Assembly (NCBI RefSeq): GCF_965219595.1
Contig: NZ_OZ244781.1
Span: forward strand, 133,429-197,428
DNA: 64,000 bases
Direction of reading: 5' to 3'
Source of the DNA: Candidatus Poriferisodalis sp.
GTDB lineage: Bacteria; Actinomycetota; Acidimicrobiia; Acidimicrobiales; Poriferisodalaceae
Positions 39,975-48,606 of the stretch are shown here, one piece after another; the first letter of the stretch is position 1; the number at the start of each line of letters is the position of its first letter. The notes beneath the pieces were generated by a model. It was not told the DNA's origin. It ran no database searches and saw only the letters and a list, made by a program, of their open reading frames with translations. The translations under genes were made by a program, and so were the position numbers.

Positions 39975-42125
39975 ATGACGCAGGCTCCGGTGGCACCGCA
40001 GCGGCCGCACGTGCGGCGCATTCACGGCACTGAGACCGACGACCCCTGGCACTGGCTGCGCGACCGGGACGACCCCTCGGTGCGGGAGTACCTCGAGGCC
40101 GAGAATGCCTATACGGAAGCCGCGACTGTCCACCTGGCGGATCTTCGGGAGCAGATCTTCGGCGAGATCAAGGCTCGCACCAAGGAGACCCACCAGTCGT
40201 TGCCGACGCCGAAGGACGACTGGGAATACCGGGCTCGCACCGTGGAGGGGTTGCAGTACGTCATCCATGTGAGGCGCCCCCGGGGCGGCACCGACGATGA
40301 CGAGGTGGTGCTGCTCGACGAGAACGAGTTGGCCGAGGGCCACGAGTACTTCGCCGTCGGCGACCTGGCCGTCAGCCCCGATCACCGCCTGCTCGCCTAC
40401 ACCACCGACACCGAGGGCGACGAGAAGTACACGCTGACGGTGGTCGACATCGCGACCGGTGAGGTGCTGGACGGCCCCGACGTGCCCGCAGCGGGGTGCG
40501 GACTCGCCGAACTCAGCTACGGGCTGGTGTGGGCCAACGACAACTCGACGCTGTTCGCCGTGCGCACCGACGACGCCCAGCGCCCAAACCGGGTCATCCG
40601 CCATGCCGTAGGCACCGACCCCGCCGGTGACGTCGAGGCCTACCGGGAGGACGACGAGCGGTTCTGGGTGGGCGTCGGGGCCACCCGCAGCGAGCGGTTC
40701 GTGGTGATCGGCTCGCAGTCGAAGATCACCTCCGAGCACCGCTTGGTGGATGCCGACCGGCCCGATGCTGAGCCGCTGGTAGTGCGGGCACGCGGTGAGG
40801 GCATCGAGTACGGCGTCGACCACCAGGGCGACCGGCTGCTGATCGTCACCAACGACGGCGCGCAGGACTTCCGCCTGGTCGAAGCGCCGGTGCCGAGCGA
40901 AGGCGACGCCCCAGCCAACGGCGATGGCCCCGGCGAAAGCAGCAACCCTGCTAGCGGTGATGGCCCCGACGACGGCAGCACGTGGAGCGAGCTCATCGGC
41001 GACCGGCCCGGCATCCGGCTCGACGACGTGGACTGCTTCGGCGACTTCGTCGTCGTTCACGACCGGCAGGACGGGCTGACCACCCTGAGGGTGCACGACA
41101 CACGCGACGCTGCAGCGGGCGAGCTTGGCACTGCGTTCGAGATCGAGATGCCGGAGCCGGTCTATGAGGCGGGCGGCGGGGCGAATGCCGAATTCGACAC
41201 CCGCCGCTACCGATTCGGCTACACGTCGATGGTGACGCCGCCGTCGATCTTCGAGCTCGACTTAGACAGCGGCGAGCGAGAACTGCTCGACCAGCTGCCG
41301 GTGCTCGGCGATGTCGACCTGACGGCGTACACCACCGAGCGCATCACCGCCACGGCGCCCGACGGCACGGCGGTGCCGATCAGCCTGGTGTGGAAGCCCA
41401 GCGCAGTGAGCTGGCCAGCGCCCTGCCTGCTCTACGGCTACGGGGCCTACGAGATCGGCATGCCGGCGTCGTTCTCGACGGCCCGGCTGTCGCTGCTGGA
41501 TCGGGGCGTGCTGTTCGCCATGGCCCACGTGCGCGGCGGCGGCGAGTTGGGACGGGCCTGGTACGAGGGCGGCAAGCTCGCCAACAAGCAAAACACCTTC
41601 GACGACTTCGCGGCCTGCGCCCGACACTTGGCTGCGGCCCGATGGGCGAACCCCCACCGGATCTGCGCCCGGGGCGGCAGCGCCGGCGGCCTGCTCATGG
41701 GGGCGATGGTGAACCGCCACCCGGAGCTGTTCTGCGGGGTGGTAGCCGAGGTGCCCTTCGTCGACGTGTTGAACACGATGCTCGACCCGGCCATCCCCTT
41801 GACTGTCACCGAGTACGACGAGTGGGGCGACCCGACCGACCCGGCGGCGTTCGAGACGATCCGGTCATATGCGCCCTACGAGAATGTCGAGCCGGCCGAC
41901 CACCCAGCTCTGCTGGTCACCGCTGGGCTGACTGATCCGCGGGTGCAGTACTGGGAGCCTGCCAAGTGGGTGGCCAAACTGCGGGCGAGGACCACTTCGA
42001 CGGAGCCGATCCTGTTGCGCACCGAGATGGGCGCCGGCCACGGCGGACCCTCAGGCCGCTACGACGCCTGGCGCGATGAGGCGTTCATCCTGGCGTTCAT
42101 CTGTGATGTGCTCGGCGTGGCGTAA
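39975..42125 (+). CDS. ptrB: oligopeptidase B (S9A prolyl oligopeptidase family)
   Basis: DDPWHWLRDRDDP.V..YLEAEN.YT, GGSAGGLLMGA (nucleophile Ser) and DPRVQYWEPAKWVAKLR. Confidence 0.92.
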   Translation: MTQAPVAPQRPHVRRIHGTETDDPWHWLRDRDDPSVREYLEAENAYTEAATVHLADLREQIFGEIKARTKETHQSLPTPKDDWEYRARTVEGLQYVIHVRRPRGGTDDDEVVLLDENELAEGHEYFAVGDLAVSPDHRLLAYTTDTEGDEKYTLTVVDIATGEVLDGPDVPAAGCGLAELSYGLVWANDNSTLFAVRTDDAQRPNRVIRHAVGTDPAGDVEAYREDDERFWVGVGATRSERFVVIGSQSKITSEHRLVDADRPDAEPLVVRARGEGIEYGVDHQGDRLLIVTNDGAQDFRLVEAPVPSEGDAPANGDGPGESSNPASGDGPDDGSTWSELIGDRPGIRLDDVDCFGDFVVVHDRQDGLTTLRVHDTRDAAAGELGTAFEIEMPEPVYEAGGGANAEFDTRRYRFGYTSMVTPPSIFELDLDSGERELLDQLPVLGDVDLTAYTTERITATAPDGTAVPISLVWKPSAVSWPAPCLLYGYGAYEIGMPASFSTARLSLLDRGVLFAMAHVRGGGELGRAWYEGGKLANKQNTFDDFAACARHLAAARWANPHRICARGGSAGGLLMGAMVNRHPELFCGVVAEVPFVDVLNTMLDPAIPLTVTEYDEWGDPTDPAAFETIRSYAPYENVEPADHPALLVTAGLTDPRVQYWEPAKWVAKLRARTTSTEPILLRTEMGAGHGGPSGRYDAWRDEAFILAFICDVLGVA

Positions 42126-42179
42126 GCCACGCGCAGACAGCACGGGTGGCGTAAGCCACGCGCAGACAGCACGGGTGGC
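42118..42179 (+). repeat. perfect 29-bp tandem duplication (2 copies plus 4 nt) covering the ptrB stop codon
   Basis: TGGCGTAAGCCACGCGCAGACAGCACGGG x2. The first copy completes a GCGTGGC-GUAA-GCCACGC hairpin (42115-42132). Confidence 0.95.
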
Positions 42180-42188
42180 AGAGACGGC

Positions 42189-42563
42189 CTAGATCAGCGC
42201 AAGCACAGCGAGTGCGGCCAGCAGGCCGTTGCGCAGCAGCGAACCGGCGCCGACGGGTTTGGAGGACCAGCGGCCGAAGCACGCGCAGGCGGGGCGCTCG
42301 TCACGCGGGCGCTGCAGCACCCGCGCCAAGGCTGCGGTGAACACAACCAGCAGCCCGAGCGCCAGCCACGCCGGCCATGGCTCGGCAACTCCCGCCGCCA
42401 ACCCCGCCCCCAGCACGATCTCGACCGGAGCGATGAACGGAACGGTCCAACGGGGTGCGCCCATTGCACGGGCGGCGCCCGGCCATGACGGGTCGCGCAG
42501 CTTCAGCGCGCCCGACACCAGGAACAGCACGCCGAGCGCGACGCGGGCGATGGCGCTGATCAC
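42189..42563 (-). CDS. MauE/DoxX-family redox-associated membrane protein
   Basis: 124 aa with 4 TM helices. LFLVSGALKLRDP and the CACFG motif are typical of MauE-like proteins. Confidence 0.75.
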   Translation of the reverse strand: MISAIARVALGVLFLVSGALKLRDPSWPGAARAMGAPRWTVPFIAPVEIVLGAGLAAGVAEPWPAWLALGLLVVFTAALARVLQRPRDERPACACFGRWSSKPVGAGSLLRNGLLAALAVLALI

Positions 42564-42631
42564 CGGAGCAGCACACCTAGTGCGGTGCAGACGACGGCGC
42601 TGATCACCCCTGCCCGCCTATCAGCCGGCCG

Positions 42632-43126
42632 TCACGCGAAGGTGCCGTAGCCACCCTTCCAGAACAGCAGGGGGTCCTTAGCATCGAGCACTTCGAGCTC
42701 GACGACGCGCCCCACGACGATGTCGTGATCGCCGCCGTCGTGCACGGCTTCGATGGTGCAGTCGATGTAACCGATCGAGCCCTCGATGATCGGCGCACCG
42801 GTGGGCCCGGGCCGCCACCCGACATCGGCGAACTTGTCGTCGGCCCGGCTGGCCATCACGCCACAGGTGGCCATCTGGTCCTGGGCCATGATGTTCACGC
42901 AGAAGCTGCCCGCGGCACGGATGTCGTTCCACGTCGTCGAGTCCTTGGTGGGCAGAAACGCGACGAGCGGCGGGTCGAGCGACACCGAGGTGAACGAGCC
43001 GATGGCCATGCCGACCGGCCGACCCTCGTTCACGGCGGTGACGGCGGTGACGCCCGTCGGAAAGTGCCCCAGCACATCCCGGAAGAGCCTGCTGTCGATG
43101 GAGGGCTGGTCGCTCGAGTCAGTCAC
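42632..43126 (-). CDS. flavin reductase-domain protein (HpaC-like)
   Basis: GTG 43126. FRDVLGHFPTGVTAVT, AIGSFTSVSLDPPLV.F and GDHDIVVGRV. Confidence 0.85.
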   Translation of the reverse strand: MTDSSDQPSIDSRLFRDVLGHFPTGVTAVTAVNEGRPVGMAIGSFTSVSLDPPLVAFLPTKDSTTWNDIRAAGSFCVNIMAQDQMATCGVMASRADDKFADVGWRPGPTGAPIIEGSIGYIDCTIEAVHDGGDHDIVVGRVVELEVLDAKDPLLFWKGGYGTFA

Positions 43127-43193
43127 GGCGCCAACCCTAGACAGCCGAACCTCGCCCGGGCCGCCCCCGGCGAGCCACATATAGCCTCCGGCT

Positions 43194-44690
43194 ATGGCTT
43201 CGAGCGCTGACGGGAACACGGCCGACGACGCGGCAGCGAAGGTGCCGCGGAACGGCTTGGTCGCCGTGGTGAAACGGGACTGTCCGACGTGCGAGCTGAT
43301 CGAGCCGGTGCTCGCGGACATCGAGGCCCGGGGCTCGCTGACCGTGTTCACCCAGGATGACCCCGCCTTCCCCGAGGCGGTCTCAGCCCGGTTGCACGAC
43401 GACGACCTTGGCTTTTCGTGGCATCACGACATCGAGACGGTGCCGACGCTGATGCGGTTCGCCGACGGCGGCGAGGCCGGCCGCATCGTGGGGTGGTCCC
43501 GACTCGAATGGGAATCATTCACCGGGCTCGGCAGCCTGGGCGACGGCCTGCCCGAACACCGGCCCGGCTGCGGTTCGCTCTCGGTCGACCCAGCTCACGT
43601 CGACGCCTTGGAGGCCCGCTTCGGCAGCTCGGGCCTGAGCGCTCGTCGGGTCGAATTCGGCAGTCAGGAAGACGCCCACGAGGCGATGTTCGACCGGGGC
43701 TGGTCGGACGGTTTGCCGCTGGTTCCACCCACAGCTGAGCGAGTCGCAGCGATGCTGGCAGGCACGTCGCGTGCAGCCGACGAGGTGGTGGCCAATGTCG
43801 CACCCGATCTCGCCGACTGCACGGTCGAGAAGGCCGCGGTCAACGCCGTGATGGCCGGCTGCCGGCCCGAGTACTTCCCGGTGGTGCTGGCTGGCCTGAC
43901 CGCCGTGTGCAATGACACGTTCAACATGCACGGAATGCTGGCCACCACTATGCCGGTCGGGCCTGTGTTCATCGTGAACGGGCCGATCGCCCGCCAGATC
44001 GGCATGAACAACGGGATCAACGTGTTCGGCCAGGGCAACCGGGCCAACAGCACGATCGGGCGGGCGGTGCAGCTCATCGTGCGCAACGTGGGCGGCGGGC
44101 GTCCCGGCGAAGTGGACCGGGCGGCGCTCGGCCAGCCCGGCAAGGTGGGCTTCTGCTTTGCCGAGATCGAAGGGGCCGAGGCAGCCACCGGCGCAGGCTG
44201 GGACCCGCTGTGCACCGACTTCGGCTTCGAGGCCGGCACCAACACCGTGACAGCCTTCCCCGGCGAAGGGCCTCGCTCCGTGGTCGACCAGCTCTCTCGT
44301 GATCCCGAGTCGCTGGCGCGCACCATGGCAGCCACGCTGAATGCGATCCACCACCCGAAGCTGGTGCTGGGTTTCGATGCGATCCTCGCGGTGGCGCCCG
44401 ACCATTCCCGCGTGTTCATCGACAGTGGCTGGACACGCCAGCAGACTGCCGAGCGCATCAACGAGCTGACTACCCGGTCAGGCTCCGAGCTGGTGCGCGG
44501 CGCTGGCGGCATCGCCGAGGGCGTGCCGGAGTTCCTCGCCGAGGCGGACCTGCCGAAGTTCCGTGAGGGAGGCCTGCACCTGGTGCACTGCGGCGGCGGT
44601 GCGGGGCTCTTCTCGGCGGTCATCGGCGGCTGGGTGAACGGCGAGGTCGGCGCTCAGCCCGTCTGCGTCGAGATCGATTCCTGGCGATAG
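43194..44690 (+). CDS. thioredoxin-like domain (CPTC) fused to a ~380-aa domain of unknown function
   Basis: N-terminal VAVVKRDCPTCELIEPVL...VPTLMRF..G has a thioredoxin-fold layout. The remainder (GWSDGLPLVPPTAERV..M, EKAAVNAVMAGC.PEYFPV, GQGNRANSTIGRAVQL) is not recognised. Confidence 0.8.
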   Translation: MASSADGNTADDAAAKVPRNGLVAVVKRDCPTCELIEPVLADIEARGSLTVFTQDDPAFPEAVSARLHDDDLGFSWHHDIETVPTLMRFADGGEAGRIVGWSRLEWESFTGLGSLGDGLPEHRPGCGSLSVDPAHVDALEARFGSSGLSARRVEFGSQEDAHEAMFDRGWSDGLPLVPPTAERVAAMLAGTSRAADEVVANVAPDLADCTVEKAAVNAVMAGCRPEYFPVVLAGLTAVCNDTFNMHGMLATTMPVGPVFIVNGPIARQIGMNNGINVFGQGNRANSTIGRAVQLIVRNVGGGRPGEVDRAALGQPGKVGFCFAEIEGAEAATGAGWDPLCTDFGFEAGTNTVTAFPGEGPRSVVDQLSRDPESLARTMAATLNAIHHPKLVLGFDAILAVAPDHSRVFIDSGWTRQQTAERINELTTRSGSELVRGAGGIAEGVPEFLAEADLPKFREGGLHLVHCGGGAGLFSAVIGGWVNGEVGAQPVCVEIDSWR

Positions 44691-44705
44691 CAAGGCCAAG
44701 CTCGC

Positions 44706-44809
44706 GGGCCGCTTGGGCCTGCGTTTCCCGCTCTTGTTCGCTCCGCTCACGGGCCGCTCGGGCCTGCGTTTCCCGCTCTTGTTCGCTCCGCTCACGGGCC
44801 GCTTGGGCC
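44706..44809 (+). repeat. 45-bp unit repeated 2.3x in tandem; shares its core with the dispersed repeats at 12748 and 57535
   Basis: GGGCCGCT(T/C)GGGCCTGCGTTTCCCGCTCTTGTTCGCTCCGCTCAC at 44706-44750 and 44751-44795, with a partial copy at 44796-44809. Confidence 0.95.
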
Positions 44810-44866
44810 CGGGGCGGCTACAGTCGATCAGGACGTGCCCACCGGATCCAACACAGGGGGGACCAC

Positions 44867-45385
44867 ATGAGCACTGTCGTCTTGGACCCGACCAACGAAG
44901 CGGCACCCGCCCATCGTGAGCGGGTCACCCGGCCCGATTCGCTGGACGGCCTCACCGTGGGCCTGCTGGACATCAGCAAGCCCCGCGGCGACCGCTTCCT
45001 GAACCGGCTCGAGGAACGGCTGACCGAGCGGGGCCTGCGCGTCGAGCGCTACTCCAAGCCCACGTTCACCAAGCCGGCCCCGGTCGACCTGCGCCACGAG
45101 ATCGCCACCAAGTGCGACGTGGTGATCGAAGCGCTAGCCGATTGAGGCAGCTGCACGTCGTGCAGTGTGCACGACATCGCTGATCTGGAACGCCGCGGCA
45201 TCCCGTCGGTGTTCGTCGCCACCGTCCAGTTCGTCGACGGGGCCGAGGTACAGGGCAAGGCGCTCGGCTTCGACCCGGCGGCCGTATGGGTGGAGCATCC
45301 CATCCAGGACCGCACCGACGACGAGATGGTCGCCATCGCTGACAAGGCCTTCGACGAGCTGATCGAACAGCTCGTAGCTGCTTGA
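44867..45385 (+). CDS. UGSC-family protein, predicted selenoprotein (in-frame TGA 45143-45145 read as Sec)
   Basis: ORFs 44867..45145 and 45167..45385 share one frame. Read-through gives ...VVIEALAD[TGA]GSCTSCSVHDIADLERRGIPSVFV.T..F, i.e. the U-G-S-C motif that names this family. Confidence 0.72.
45157..45175 (+). promoter_or_regulatory. candidate bacterial SECIS hairpin downstream of TGA 45143
   Basis: GUCGUGCA-GUG-UGCACGAC: 8-bp perfect stem starting 14 nt after the UGA with G/U in the apical loop. An alternative 6-bp hairpin lies at 45151-45165. Confidence 0.5.
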
Positions 45386-45421
45386 GCTACGAGCCCAACC
45401 AGCACAGCGTGGCTGCCTGAG

Positions 45422-46321
45422 TTAACCGAGACGGAGTTGGTCGCCGACTGCGGTGATCAAGCCCTCGGCGGTCAGTTCTTCGACAAGACGTTGAGCGCGT
45501 GCTTCGTCGTGCTCGAGTCTCATCGCCGCGGCAGCCTGTTCCGTCGGGAGCGAACCACCTGACAGCGCTGCGAGCAGGCGGCCCCTGGCCTGGCGGTCGC
45601 TGCCTTCGAACGGTGCCTGCCGCGCACTGACCCCGGCGCTGCGGTCGGCTGGATCTGGTTGACCCGAAGGCTCCGGGCCCAATACCTCAACCGCCCACGC
45701 ACACCACCGCTGTGCAGGGCACTGGCCGCAGCTCGGATCTCGCTTGGTGCAGACCTGTGCGCCGAGATCCATCATCGCCTGGTTCCATGCCCAGCTCTCC
45801 CCCGCAGGCACCAATTCATCGGCGATGCGCTGGGCCTCCCGGGGGCTCAGCCGACGGCCCTGCCAGCGGGCCAGGATGCGACCCACGTTGGTATCGACCA
45901 CGCCGGTATCGATGCCGAAGGCGAAGGCTTGCACTGCCCGAGCGGTGTAGGGACCCACGCCCGGCAGCGCCAGCAGGCCGTCCAGATCGGCGGGCACCCG
46001 GCCGCCGTGGCGCTCGCTGATGATCGCCGCCGTCCGCCAGAGGTTGCGAGCGCGCCGGGGGTAGCCCAGTCCCTGCCACACAGCCAGCACTTCGGCCAGC
46101 TTCGCTGCCGCGCACTGCTCCGGTATCGGCCAGCACTCGGCAAACGTCTCGAAGTACGGCAGCACCCGCTCCACCTGGGTCTGCTGCAGCATGACCTCCG
46201 AGACCAGCACGAGCCACGGGTCGCGGGTGCGCCGCCACGGCAGATCTCGCCGCTCGGCCGCCCACCAGCCGATCAGTTCGGCGTGGCGCGAGCTACGCGC
46301 ATCCGACCCAGCGTGGCGCAA
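45422..46321 (-). CDS. mutY: A/G-specific adenine DNA glycosylase
   Basis: DLPWR..RDPW.VLVSE.MLQQTQV, GLGYPRRARNL and the 4Fe-4S loop CTKRDPSCGQCPAQRWC. Confidence 0.9.
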   Translation of the reverse strand: MRHAGSDARSSRHAELIGWWAAERRDLPWRRTRDPWLVLVSEVMLQQTQVERVLPYFETFAECWPIPEQCAAAKLAEVLAVWQGLGYPRRARNLWRTAAIISERHGGRVPADLDGLLALPGVGPYTARAVQAFAFGIDTGVVDTNVGRILARWQGRRLSPREAQRIADELVPAGESWAWNQAMMDLGAQVCTKRDPSCGQCPAQRWCAWAVEVLGPEPSGQPDPADRSAGVSARQAPFEGSDRQARGRLLAALSGGSLPTEQAAAAMRLEHDEARAQRLVEELTAEGLITAVGDQLRLG

Positions 46322-46325
46322 GCGA

Positions 46326-46847
46326 TCAGCCCTCGCCGACGGCTGCCTCGTCGCTGTAGGGGAAGCGGCGCTCGGGCCCTGCTTCCCGCTTCCAGATCAT
46401 GACCTTGCGGCGGAAGTAGCACACCTCTTCGGAGCGCTGGTTGAACGCCCGGGTCTCCACGGTCACCACGCCCCGGTCGGGCCGCGAGCCAGACTCACGC
46501 TTGTCGAGCACCTTGGTGACGGCGTAGATCGTGTCGCCGTGGAACGTCGGACGGGAGTGGGTCAGCGTCTCGACCTCGAGGTTCGCAATGGCCGCACCGC
46601 TCACGTCGGGCACGCTCATGCCCAGCACCAGCGAGTACACGAGATTGCCCACCACCACGTTCTTGCCGTGCACGGTCTCGTGCTGGGCGAACCACTCGTT
46701 GGTGTGCAGCGGGTGGTGGTTCATCGTGATCATGCAGAACAGGTGATCGTCTGCCTCGGTGATGGTCTTGCCCGGCCAGTGCTGGTACACGTCGCCGATG
46801 TCGAAGTCCTCGAAGTAGCGCCCGAACGGGCGGTCATGGACGGTCAC
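46326..46847 (-). CDS. MaoC-family acyl-CoA dehydratase (single hot-dog)
   Basis: GRYFEDF.IGDVY.H..GKTITE.D.HLF...T.N.HPLH, NLEVE...H..P.F.GDT.YA and RES.SRPDRG.V.V. Confidence 0.85.
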   Translation of the reverse strand: MTVHDRPFGRYFEDFDIGDVYQHWPGKTITEADDHLFCMITMNHHPLHTNEWFAQHETVHGKNVVVGNLVYSLVLGMSVPDVSGAAIANLEVETLTHSRPTFHGDTIYAVTKVLDKRESGSRPDRGVVTVETRAFNQRSEEVCYFRRKVMIWKREAGPERRFPYSDEAAVGEG

Positions 46848-47007
46848 AGGAACCTCCGTGCAATGGTCTGGAGCAGTGGTGCTGGTGCGTGGACCGAGTC
46901 ATCGTACGGCGCAGCATCCCCGCTGACCGGGTCAAGCCGAGTCGTAGCCCGGGCCGCGCGCTGGAGCGGGCTTTAGCCTGTGCGGCTGTGACGACGACGG
47001 GGACGAC

Positions 47008-48606
47008 ATGACTGCGAACGCCGAGGCCACGGTGACTGAACCGGACATGTCCGCCGCAGCGGATGCGCTCGCTGCGGGCAACGCGGCGTTGAGCCGTGCG
47101 TGCAGCCATGCGGTCGGCATGGGCGACGACCACCAGTGCTTCCTGTACGACCTGGCGCACACCGCCTCGGCGCTGCGCATCTGCGATTCGCTGGTCGCAT
47201 GGGGTGCGCTGGGCGACGCCGAGGCCCGCCTCGCCTGCGGTTTCATCGCCGACGCCCTCGGGGAGTTCCACGCCCGGCTGTTCGCCCGTGAGGCCCAGTG
47301 GGGCCTCGAGCCCGGTGCTCTCGACGGCGCTCGCGACTTCGTAGCCGCCTACCGCAATCCCCCCTACATCGCCACGCTGGCCGGCCTCGATGCACCCAGC
47401 CACCTCGACGAAGACTTCGAGCTCGTGGCGGAGACCTTCCGCCGCTTCGGCGAGGACAAGATCGCCCCCGCTGCCGAGCACATCCACCGGGGCGACACCG
47501 ACATCCCCGAAGACATCATCGGCGGGCTGGCCGAGCTGGGCTGCTTCGGCCTTTCGGTGCCCGAGGAATACGGCGGGTTCGCCTCCGGCTCCGAGAGCGA
47601 CTACCTCGGCATGGTCATCGCCACCGAGGAGCTGTCGCGGGCATCGCTGGGCGCGGGCGGCTCGCTCATCACCCGGCCCGAGATCCTCACCCGGGCGCTG
47701 GAGCGGGGCGGCACCGAGGAGCAGAAGAAGCACTGGTTCCCCCAGATCGCCACCGGCGAAACCATGGTGGCGGTCGCCGTCACCGAGCCCGACTACGGCA
47801 GTGACGTGGCCAACCTGGTCGTGTCGGCATCGCCCACCGAAGGCGGCTGGCTGATCTCGGGCACCAAGACGTGGTGCACGTTCGCCGGCCGGGCCGATGT
47901 GCTGATGCTGCTGGCCCGCACCGATCCTGACCGGCGCAAAGCGCACCGGGGCCTCAGCCTGTTCATCGTGCCCAAGCCCCAGTCGGAGGGCCACGACTTC
48001 CAGTTCACCGACGATCGTGGCGGCACCATCGAGGGGCGGGCCATCGCCACGCTGGGCTACCGGGGCATGCACAGCTTCGAGATCGCCTTTGACGACTGGT
48101 TCGTGCCCGCAGAGAACCTCATCGGCGGCGACGACGGCGTCGGGCAGGGCTTCTACCTGCAGATGGCCGGCTTCGAGAACGGGCGGCTGCAGACTGCGGC
48201 TCGTGCCGTTGGCGTCATGCAGGCGGCCTACGACGAGGCCCGCACCTACGCCGACGAGCGCAAGGTGTTCGGCCAGCCGATCGCCGACTACCAGCTGACG
48301 CAGGCGAAGCTGGGCCGTATGGCGGCGATCATCGCCGCCGCCCGCCAGTACAGCTACGAGGTGGCCCGCATGATGGCTCGGGGCGGCGGAGCGCTCGAGG
48401 CGTCGATGATCAAGGCATATGTGTGCAAGGCCGCCGAGTGGGTGACCCGCGAGGCGCAGCAGCTCCACGGCGGGTTCGGCTTCGCCGAGGAATACACGGT
48501 GAGCCGGCTGTTCGTGGACGCCCGGGTGCTGTCGATCTTCGAGGGCGCCGACGAAACGCTGTGCCTGAAGGTGATCGCGCGCCGGCTGCAGACACAGAGC
48601 GCCTGA
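47008..48606 (+). CDS. acyl-CoA dehydrogenase with ~150-aa N-terminal extension, (2S)-methylsuccinyl-CoA dehydrogenase-like
   Basis: ACAD core (AVTEPDYGSDV, GTKTWCTFAG, QLHGGFGFAEEY). The long N-terminal extension and ~530-aa size resemble Mcd of the ethylmalonyl-CoA pathway. Confidence 0.8.
   Translation: MTANAEATVTEPDMSAAADALAAGNAALSRACSHAVGMGDDHQCFLYDLAHTASALRICDSLVAWGALGDAEARLACGFIADALGEFHARLFAREAQWGLEPGALDGARDFVAAYRNPPYIATLAGLDAPSHLDEDFELVAETFRRFGEDKIAPAAEHIHRGDTDIPEDIIGGLAELGCFGLSVPEEYGGFASGSESDYLGMVIATEELSRASLGAGGSLITRPEILTRALERGGTEEQKKHWFPQIATGETMVAVAVTEPDYGSDVANLVVSASPTEGGWLISGTKTWCTFAGRADVLMLLARTDPDRRKAHRGLSLFIVPKPQSEGHDFQFTDDRGGTIEGRAIATLGYRGMHSFEIAFDDWFVPAENLIGGDDGVGQGFYLQMAGFENGRLQTAARAVGVMQAAYDEARTYADERKVFGQPIADYQLTQAKLGRMAAIIAAARQYSYEVARMMARGGGALEASMIKAYVCKAAEWVTREAQQLHGGFGFAEEYTVSRLFVDARVLSIFEGADETLCLKVIARRLQTQSA

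Follow-up and report, generated by a model that had tools for sequence, protein, structure and literature searches.

A stretch of 64,000 nucleotides of contig NZ_OZ244781.1 from Candidatus Poriferisodalis sp. (assembly GCF_965219595.1, positions 133,429 to 197,428), referred to as the window, harbors two consecutive plus-strand genes which are the subject of this work. The first of them (43194-44690, taken from the list of open reading frames) encodes a 498-aa protein composed of a thioredoxin-fold domain, a cysteine-containing linker and a large uncharacterised domain of about 340 aa, and the second (44867-45385) encodes a 172-aa selenoprotein of the UGSC family. A flavin reductase gene and a gene for a MauE/DoxX-like membrane protein lie divergently upstream, and a 45-bp tandem repeat occupies the spacer between the two plus-strand genes. 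A first-pass annotation of this DNA had tentatively joined all four genes into one electron-transfer chain, and the four open reading frames, the in-frame UGA codon and the repeat it described are indeed present in the window. Comparison with other genomes showed that the large-domain gene and the UGSC gene are the conserved unit, co-conserved far beyond chance, and that the pair in the window is an ordinary member of a widespread, uncharacterised system.

The conservation of this pair was examined from both sides. A forward sample, collected via an alignment of the 498-aa family, comprised 80 loci on contigs of one genome per species and covered at least eight phyla, with members of the Actinomycetota, Myxococcota, Spirochaetota, Alpha- and Betaproteobacteria, Chloroflexota, Acidobacteriota, Nitrospirales, and Krumholzibacteriia. 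Testable were 78 of these loci, the remaining two contigs stopping at or just past the query gene, and in all 78 a UGSC gene follows the 498-aa homologue directly and on the same strand. The reverse sample consisted of 80 UGSC loci from metagenome contigs, 69 of them with at least 300 nt and 44 with at least 1500 nt of upstream sequence. A large-domain gene directly precedes the UGSC gene in 65 of the 69, and the thioredoxin part is likewise present in 39 of the 44 longer ones. The two genes overlap or are less than 60 nt apart in most genomes, many loci featuring a 4-nt overlap of stop and start codon (ATGA type), and the genes flanking the pair vary between phyla. Together with proteins in which both parts are fused, these counts (78/78 and 65/69) support the suggestion that the thioredoxin-fusion gene is co-conserved with UGSC. 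Moreover, the genes of two standalone large-domain members without a thioredoxin part (P0281 and P0272) each overlap by 1-4 nt with a downstream UGSC gene that contains TGA. As standalone domains thus also pair with selenocysteine-containing UGSC proteins, the core unit consists of the large domain and UGSC, with thioredoxin as an accessory fusion.

The downstream gene of the window encodes a typical member of the UGSC family, introduced as 'UGSC-containing protein' (PMC2398784). Its product exceeds the cut-offs of both family models, i.e., Pfam PF24696 (E=5e-44, 150.9 bits, cut-off 25) and NCBIfam NF041046 (153 bits, cut-off 125), and features the U-G-S-C motif, a TGA codon for selenocysteine (Sec) and a downstream hairpin. 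The in-frame TGA at 45143-45145 corresponds to Sec93 in the context EALAD-U-GSCTSCSVHD, which matches the motif D-U-G-S-C-T-S-C-x-x-H-D, and the residues U93, C96, C99, H102, and D103 are invariant across the Sec subfamily. A search of PDB sequences with the UGSC profile gave no relative. Of the 78 forward loci, 77 have TGA as the homologous Sec codon. The exception, found in Candidatus Blastococcus massiliensis AP3 (NZ_HG931175.1, L052:7656-7658), has TAG in place of TGA with the remaining reading frame and the downstream hairpin intact, and could represent a pseudogene, a sequencing error or an unusual recoding. Another deviating member, from Arthrobacter (L179:7006-7821), is a cysteine form with the sequence GDCGSCSSC and has a NifU-like domain appended at its C-terminus (Pfam E=4e-6).

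The hairpin of the window, recognized by folding and alignment, resembles a selenocysteine insertion sequence (SECIS) and is located at 45157-45175 on the plus strand, where GUCGUGCA-GUG-UGCACGAC forms 8 bp beginning 14 nt past the first base of the UGA. In an alignment of 40 sequences, 94% of the cells are paired, with exchanges between G-C, G-U, and A-U at one pair, and the 21 nt after the UGSC motif show an unusually high synonymous-site conservation. The support for this SECIS-like element comes from the alignment, since its single-sequence energy does not differ significantly from that of shuffled sequences (z = 0.35). An Rfam scan of 41500-46500 returned no family, and none of selA, selB, selD, and tRNA-Sec was detected within the 64-kb window. 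In nine related loci, selA and/or selB, both scored above the NCBIfam cut-offs, directly flank the domain-UGSC pair, an arrangement expected if the pair is a main selenoprotein client of those genomes.

The upstream partner has no Pfam or NCBIfam match over its whole length, and its family, with more than 8000 matches of 53-100% identity, is named merely 'thioredoxin family protein'. About residues 20-115 (43251-43538, plus strand) constitute the thioredoxin-fold domain, which contains the active site C30-P-T-C33 (codons 43281-43292) as well as a cis-Pro-type ETVPT motif. The N-terminal thioredoxin-like CPTC domain recognized in the first reading of the sequence was substantiated by Foldseek comparison to PDB thioredoxins (probability 1.0) and by the match of the family profile to PDB thioredoxins (E=1.8e-4); the Pfam Thioredoxin model was not reached by the 498-aa protein. 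In the family alignment, C30, T32, and C33 are invariant. The subsequent linker motif R-P-G-C126-G-S (43560-43577, plus strand), derived from the family alignments, lies in a low-confidence segment of the structure model. Its residues P124, G125, C126, and G127 are invariant in 55 sequences, and R123 and S128 are so in a set of 16 sequences, with Q and A occurring in a small number of proteobacterial members. All inspected variants fused to a thioredoxin- or AhpC-like domain have the motif PGC(G/A), which standalone domain proteins lack. The AlphaFold2 (AF2) model of the full-length protein is poor, with a predicted local distance difference test (pLDDT) of 65.9 and values below 50 for residues 127-175, and Foldseek, queried with it, retrieved nothing but thioredoxins. 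Judging from this model, the RPGCGS segment is probably flexible.

The large domain (43671-44687, plus strand) is characterized by the motifs GWSDGLPxVPPT, VEKxAxNAVMAGC223 (C223 codon at 43860-43862), and GQGNRANxTIGRA. Searched alone, it gave no match in Pfam, NCBIfam or among PDB sequences, and a profile of 38 superfamily members likewise found no relative in Pfam or among PDB sequences, so that the domain is as unrecognised as had been noted at first. A profile of residues 118-498 was further compared to 1.84 billion representative proteins, which yielded a superfamily of 6741 clusters (50% identity) at E<=1e-3 and 2032 clusters at E<=1e-30. Four architectures occur therein. The type of the window combines a thioredoxin-fold or AhpC/TSA-like domain, the PGC(G/A) linker and the large domain, and the N-terminal fusion partner of some homologues was scored as AhpC/TSA or Redoxin. 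Besides, the large domain occurs as a standalone protein of some 350 aa, as a tandem double domain of some 715 aa, and in fusion with a UGSC domain at its N-terminal side (P0330, P0345, P0361, P0369, P0374, P0384). In 2008, a study of Global Ocean Sampling data mentioned a 'UGSC/Unknown_1' fusion (PMC2398784), which is very likely the last of these architectures; the large domain is probably the 'Unknown_1' of Zhang and Gladyshev 2008. Fusions of UGSC and the large domain are present in Sporomusa and Vibrio, too. Those of Sporomusa termitida (L176:5281-7005) and Vibrio europaeus (L178:5323-7008) have aconitase X and DUF126 genes as neighbours, read DMGTS at the motif and may represent a non-redox branch of the family. 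Two tandem double-domain members of about 715-740 aa, P0253 (L083:4001-6154) and P0265 (L171:266-2491), have no UGSC gene nearby, and one of these loci adjoins a gene for an SBP_bac_5 ABC-transporter binding protein.

Modeled alone, the large domain gave a confident AF2 structure (pLDDT 80.9, predicted template modeling score 0.82). Foldseek placed the class I (Fe-S) fumarate hydratase fold first, at an E-value of about 3e-3, a probability of <=0.6 and a template modeling (TM) score of <=0.27, followed by DUF1185 and Toblerone-fold hydrolases as the next weak matches. The fumarase lead was dropped after hhalign against E. coli FumA gave a probability of 0.2. The structure and profile comparisons assigned the domain to no known family. 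Within the superfamily, C223 of the MAGC motif is the sole invariant cysteine of the large domain, and C321 is conserved to about 90%. An Fe-S site built from three conserved cysteines of this domain was rejected, because C223 alone is conserved superfamily-wide. In a further variant, the U-x-x-C-x-x-C of UGSC itself, with its ferredoxin-like spacing, would be a metal or iron-sulfur site, perhaps with H102/D103 or the partner residue C223 as completing ligands, which would make the pair a metallo-enzyme instead of a thiol/selenol relay. The invariance of U93, C96, C99, H102, and D103 in the Sec subfamily, the NifU-like domain of the Arthrobacter protein and the fumarate hydratases among the weak structural matches would fit such a site. 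It is nevertheless very unlikely, since many members of the Cys type or with fused domains lack the third cysteine or have Trp in its place (CGSCTSW, CGASSSW, DMGTS), hhalign did not confirm the fumarase lead and the large domain has only one invariant cysteine.

Versions in which the thioredoxin part is not fused were inspected on annotated plasmids and chromids of cultured organisms. Here, the gene orders are trxB-trxA-domain-UGSC in Arthrobacter sp. ERGS1:01, domain-UGSC-trxB in Roseovarius sp. THAF8 and trxB-TctC-SDR-domain-UGSC in Variovorax sp. SRS16. In Paracoccus ferrooxidans, a Sec-containing UGSC gene is followed by the domain gene, with selB nearby, and haloarchaea show the order UGSC-domain with UGSC in its Cys form. 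A search of the window and all loci found trxB solely in these plasmid contexts of unfused versions. The trxA and trxB genes beside the unfused versions provide Rosetta-stone evidence that thioredoxin, and behind it the NADPH-dependent thioredoxin reductase, feeds the system. Enzymes carrying the module by which they are recycled are known from fusions of thioredoxin to MsrA/B and from hybrids of peroxiredoxin and glutaredoxin, and the 498-aa protein is similar to these in the fusion of a CxxC thioredoxin-fold module and in the separate trxA adjoining unfused homologues. It differs from them by a catalytic domain of no described family, by the requirement of a second, Sec-containing subunit and by the extra invariant cysteine of the PGCG linker.

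The Sec-containing, thioredoxin-fused subfamily has no conserved neighbours, and the inducible clusters in which the Cys-type relatives are found also contain transporters of the TRAP, TTT or MFS type, CoA-transferases of family III and regulators of the LysR, GntR or IclR type. These clusters of transporters, CoA-transferases and regulators suggest small organic acids or acyl-CoA compounds as substrates. Family III (CaiB/BaiF) CoA-transferases recur beside domain-UGSC pairs in L174, L183, L184, L004-L006, L010, and L066-L068, which represent Roseovarius, two haloarchaea and metagenomic Myxococcota, Spirochaetota, Nitrospirales, and Chloroflexota, often accompanied by TRAP or TTT transporters, and they possibly hint at the substrate class. 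Phosphosulfolactate synthase-like genes were additionally noticed in two unrelated pair clusters, of Arthrobacter sp. ERGS1:01 (L179:3677-4465) and Natrinema zhouii (L183:1844-2311), which might point to a connection with organosulfonate metabolism.

A clue to the chemistry is given by UGSC residues 79-123, which match models of the GrdB, GrdF, and PrdB type around their Sec (model positions 333-376; E=4e-5). In GrdB, Sec350 is embedded in 436 residues (PMC3091704). The selenol of PrdB and GrdB attacks the substrate and is resolved to a Se-S bond, and glycine reductase obtains its electrons from NADPH via thioredoxin reductase and thioredoxin (PMC3091704). Owing to this local match and the known chemistry of GrdB and PrdB, the genes at 43194-44690 and 44867-45385 are read as a self-contained two-gene operon for a cytoplasmic two-subunit thiol/selenol oxidoreductase, to which we assign a probability of roughly 60%. 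The reading starts from the adjacency and fusions of the two genes, the conservation of Sec, the SECIS-like hairpin, the thioredoxin fold and the trxA/trxB neighbours of the unfused versions. The large domain of about 340 aa would be the substrate-binding, catalytic subunit and would contribute C223, and UGSC would be a small flavodoxin-like subunit resembling GrdB and PrdB which supplies U93 and the resolving cysteines C96 and C99. Turnover is proposed to leave the selenium centre as a selenenyl-sulfide, which the fused thioredoxin domain (C30/C33) would re-reduce, probably via C126 of the flexible linker. The thioredoxin domain might in turn be reduced by the NADPH-dependent thioredoxin reductase of the cell, encoded elsewhere.

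Several observations weigh against this oxidoreductase. The similarity to GrdB is local and reaches 22.7 bits at a cut-off of 602, far from membership in TIGR01917 or TIGR01918. No catalytic fold could be recognised in the large domain (best TM score against PDB structures 0.27, Foldseek), the thioredoxin-fused homologue P0256 has alanine at the position of C223, and the fused UGSC-like domains of Sporomusa and Vibrio contain none of the motif cysteines (DMGTS). On account of the last two points, the relay as drawn does not hold superfamily-wide. Three UGSC loci (L121, L123, L159) have no large-domain gene nearby, and in L137 a gap of 1 kb separates the two. Furthermore, trxB is absent from the window and from the 160 loci of both scans, which are mostly of the thioredoxin-fused type; with no trxB near those loci, the housekeeping thioredoxin reductase presumably serves this type. 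Finally, the genetic linkage is shown, and we infer from it the physical complex of the two proteins, the sequence of steps in the Cys/Sec relay and a chemistry of the reductase type; the indirect status of the binding itself counts against the proposal.

The two-subunit oxidoreductase could be understood more specifically. Tentatively, the pair may constitute a new class of heteromeric selenoenzymes which, driven by thioredoxin, reductively cleaves a bond in a small organic acid or a similar compound, analogous to glycine and proline reductase. Such a class would feature a catalytic subunit of unrecognised fold and would have a wide distribution among aerobic Bacteria as well as Cys-type representatives in haloarchaea. 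The likeness to glycine and D-proline reductase lies in a small UxxC Sec subunit with a larger partner and in the linkage to the thioredoxin system as reductant. The differences concern size, with 172 aa of UGSC compared to 436 aa of GrdB and 242 aa of PrdB, the partner, which is unrelated to GrdE and PrdA and shows no pyruvoyl sign, the missing equivalents of GrdA, GrdC, and GrdD, and the hosts of the UGSC pair, which are mostly aerobes. UGSC has no match to Pfam GRDB (PF07355), and neither the 498-aa protein nor 38 superfamily members have a Pfam match to the GrdE/PrdA family (PF09338).

In a strict Stickland-type version of this oxidoreductase, reductive cleavage of a C-N, C-S or C-X bond would proceed as in PrdB and GrdB by attack of the selenol on a substrate carbon, formation of a selenoether and resolution by cysteine to Se-S, with the large domain in the role of PrdA or GrdE binding and activating the substrate. 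The local match of UGSC to three selenoprotein-B models around Sec, all of them UxxC (PMC2398784, Table 2), the link to thioredoxin reductase and thioredoxin as in glycine reductase, and the near-exceptionless Sec, as a demanding chemistry would predict, agree with this version, as does the placement of the Cys-type relatives in catabolic clusters, together with transporters, CoA-transferases of family III and LysR/GntR regulators. We regard it as unlikely nonetheless, for the large domain does not resemble GrdE/PrdA and has no Pfam Gly_reductase match, the hosts are mostly aerobes without Stickland metabolism and the GrdB similarity amounts to just 22.7 bits. In addition, the sole candidate cysteine for self-cleavage (PGCG) is missing in standalone domains which are still paired with Sec-UGSC. 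A pyruvoyl-forming self-cleavage at PGCG (G125/C126) is accordingly disfavoured, as standalone domain proteins do not have the motif.

A different use of the same redox centre would be an antioxidant or repair enzyme of the peroxidase or sulfoxide/disulfide reductase type, in which the Sec/Cys centre acts on an oxidant or on a biomolecule that has become oxidised, reducing it, and the large domain serves as a scaffold or specificity subunit. The AhpC/TSA or Redoxin fusions at the N-terminus of some homologues point in this direction, the lack of conserved catabolic neighbours around the thioredoxin-fused Sec subfamily would fit a housekeeping role, and PMC3091704 cites a publication whose title reads 'Peroxidase activity of selenoprotein GrdB'. 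Still, such a role appears quite improbable, as a domain of about 340 aa so conserved (53-100% identity across phyla, with many invariant polar residues) suggests a dedicated active site and not a scaffold, and the inducible clusters that harbor the Cys-type relatives are catabolic and include transporters.

As early as 2008, a report covered the UGSC family together with one fusion of UGSC to an unknown domain (PMC2398784). Neither this paper nor a 2022 review and a 2026 review gives UGSC a function, and the 2026 review counts it among the selenoproteins with largely uncharacterised functions (PMC13188914). The searchable literature mentioning UGSC describes neither the near-obligate pairing with a thioredoxin-fused large domain nor the link to trxA/trxB, so that both appear to be undescribed before; nor does this literature describe the size and range of architectures of the partner superfamily or its missing representation in Pfam and PDB. 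By the pairing and fusion with one domain of about 340 aa, and with thioredoxin as the genetically linked reductant, an orphan motif becomes a testable enzyme system. The partner superfamily of 6741 clusters is without a Pfam model or a solved structure, and annotators have grounds to drop the bare name 'thioredoxin family protein' for its fused members. The system is carried by culturable hosts, among them Pseudonocardia bannensis (DSM 45300, L057, with the thioredoxin-fused Sec type), Arthrobacter sp. ERGS1:01, Roseovarius sp. THAF8, Paracoccus ferrooxidans, Variovorax sp. SRS16, and Natrinema spp. If true, the tentative assignment to a new class of selenoenzymes would provide a function for an orphan selenoprotein family that ranks among the most abundant ones of aquatic metagenomes.

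The divergent neighbours of the pair were named correctly in the first-pass annotation, and Pfam attests both identities. The flavin reductase (42632-43126, minus strand) is HpaC/HsaB-like and matches PF01613 with E=2.8e-45 and 154.6 bits (cut-off 27); its best NCBIfam match, HsaB, remains at 202 bits under the 230-bit cut-off and outside this equivalog. The MauE/DoxX-like membrane protein of 124 aa (42189-42563, minus strand) matches the Pfam family MauE (PF07291) with E=5e-20 and 72.4 bits (cut-off 27) and contains RPACACFGRW, including the CACFG noted before. Although both are true Pfam members, they are not co-conserved with the pair beyond the synteny block of one lineage, which further includes prolyl oligopeptidase, MutY, MaoC, and acyl-CoA dehydrogenase. 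With sensitive iterated hidden Markov models, flavin reductase was counted in 22 of the 80 genome loci (21 Actinomycetota and one Burkholderiales) and MauE in 17, the latter in Actinomycetota only and always with the prolyl-oligopeptidase synteny. Unrelated syntenic genes are as frequent, i.e., MutY with 23, prolyl oligopeptidase with 16 and MaoC with 11 loci. Being lineage-restricted and occurring at the frequency of unrelated syntenic genes, MauE and flavin reductase are not parts of the system but lineage neighbours outside the conserved module.

This result bears on the original four-gene chain, in which electrons would run from NAD(P)H via the flavin reductase and the thioredoxin CxxC to UGSC, with membrane coupling through MauE/DoxX. 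Of this chain, the path from thioredoxin to the selenoprotein fits the trxA and trxB genes beside the unfused versions, whereas its flavin reductase and MauE ends are not co-conserved. The four genes are contiguous in the window and in close relatives (L001-L003), and the flavin reductase is divergently adjacent in further Acidimicrobiia (L030, L049) and independently in Burkholderiales (L076/L165). Against the chain stand the counts given above, confined essentially to Actinomycetota, and the genes which often intervene between MauE/flavin reductase and the pair (L008, L032, L042, and others). Moreover, the flavoprotein which recurs beside the pair elsewhere, next to its unfused versions, is thioredoxin reductase and not an HpaC/HsaB-type flavin reductase. 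Flavin reductases of the latter type supply free reduced flavin to two-component monooxygenases, and we know of none which reduces thioredoxins. The chain as a whole is therefore very unlikely. The iterated search for diverged flavin reductases added a single non-actinobacterial locus, L076. This Burkholderiales metagenome-assembled genome (L165:6251-6907) has the only non-actinobacterial divergent Flavin_Reduct gene directly upstream of a thioredoxin-fusion gene, arranged as in the window, which may be a coincidence or an independent recruitment.

Downstream of UGSC, the window continues at 45422-48606 with MutY and a MaoC/mesaconyl-CoA-hydratase-like dehydratase, both encoded on the minus strand, and an acyl-CoA dehydrogenase encoded on the plus strand. 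The synteny of this block extends across Acidimicrobiia (L001-L003, L032, L047, L168), and the block shows no sign of belonging to the pair.

The tandem repeat in the spacer of the pair, located by a repeat scan at 44700-44809, consists of 2.4 copies of a 45-bp unit and occurs at a single site within the window. Each unit is loosely terminator-like, with a U-rich run behind a GC-rich hairpin (GUUUCCCGCUCUUGUU), and the repeat widens the spacer; a consensus-based scan for terminators was negative between the two genes. A role as a functional element was rejected because the repeat is absent from the closest relative L002 (89% identical) and from L003. The repeat is a strain-specific insertion. 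A second perfect tandem repeat of 29 bp in 2.2 copies, GTGGCGTAAGCCACGCGCAGACAGCACGG, is situated at 42117-42179, in the gap where the genes for prolyl oligopeptidase and MauE converge.

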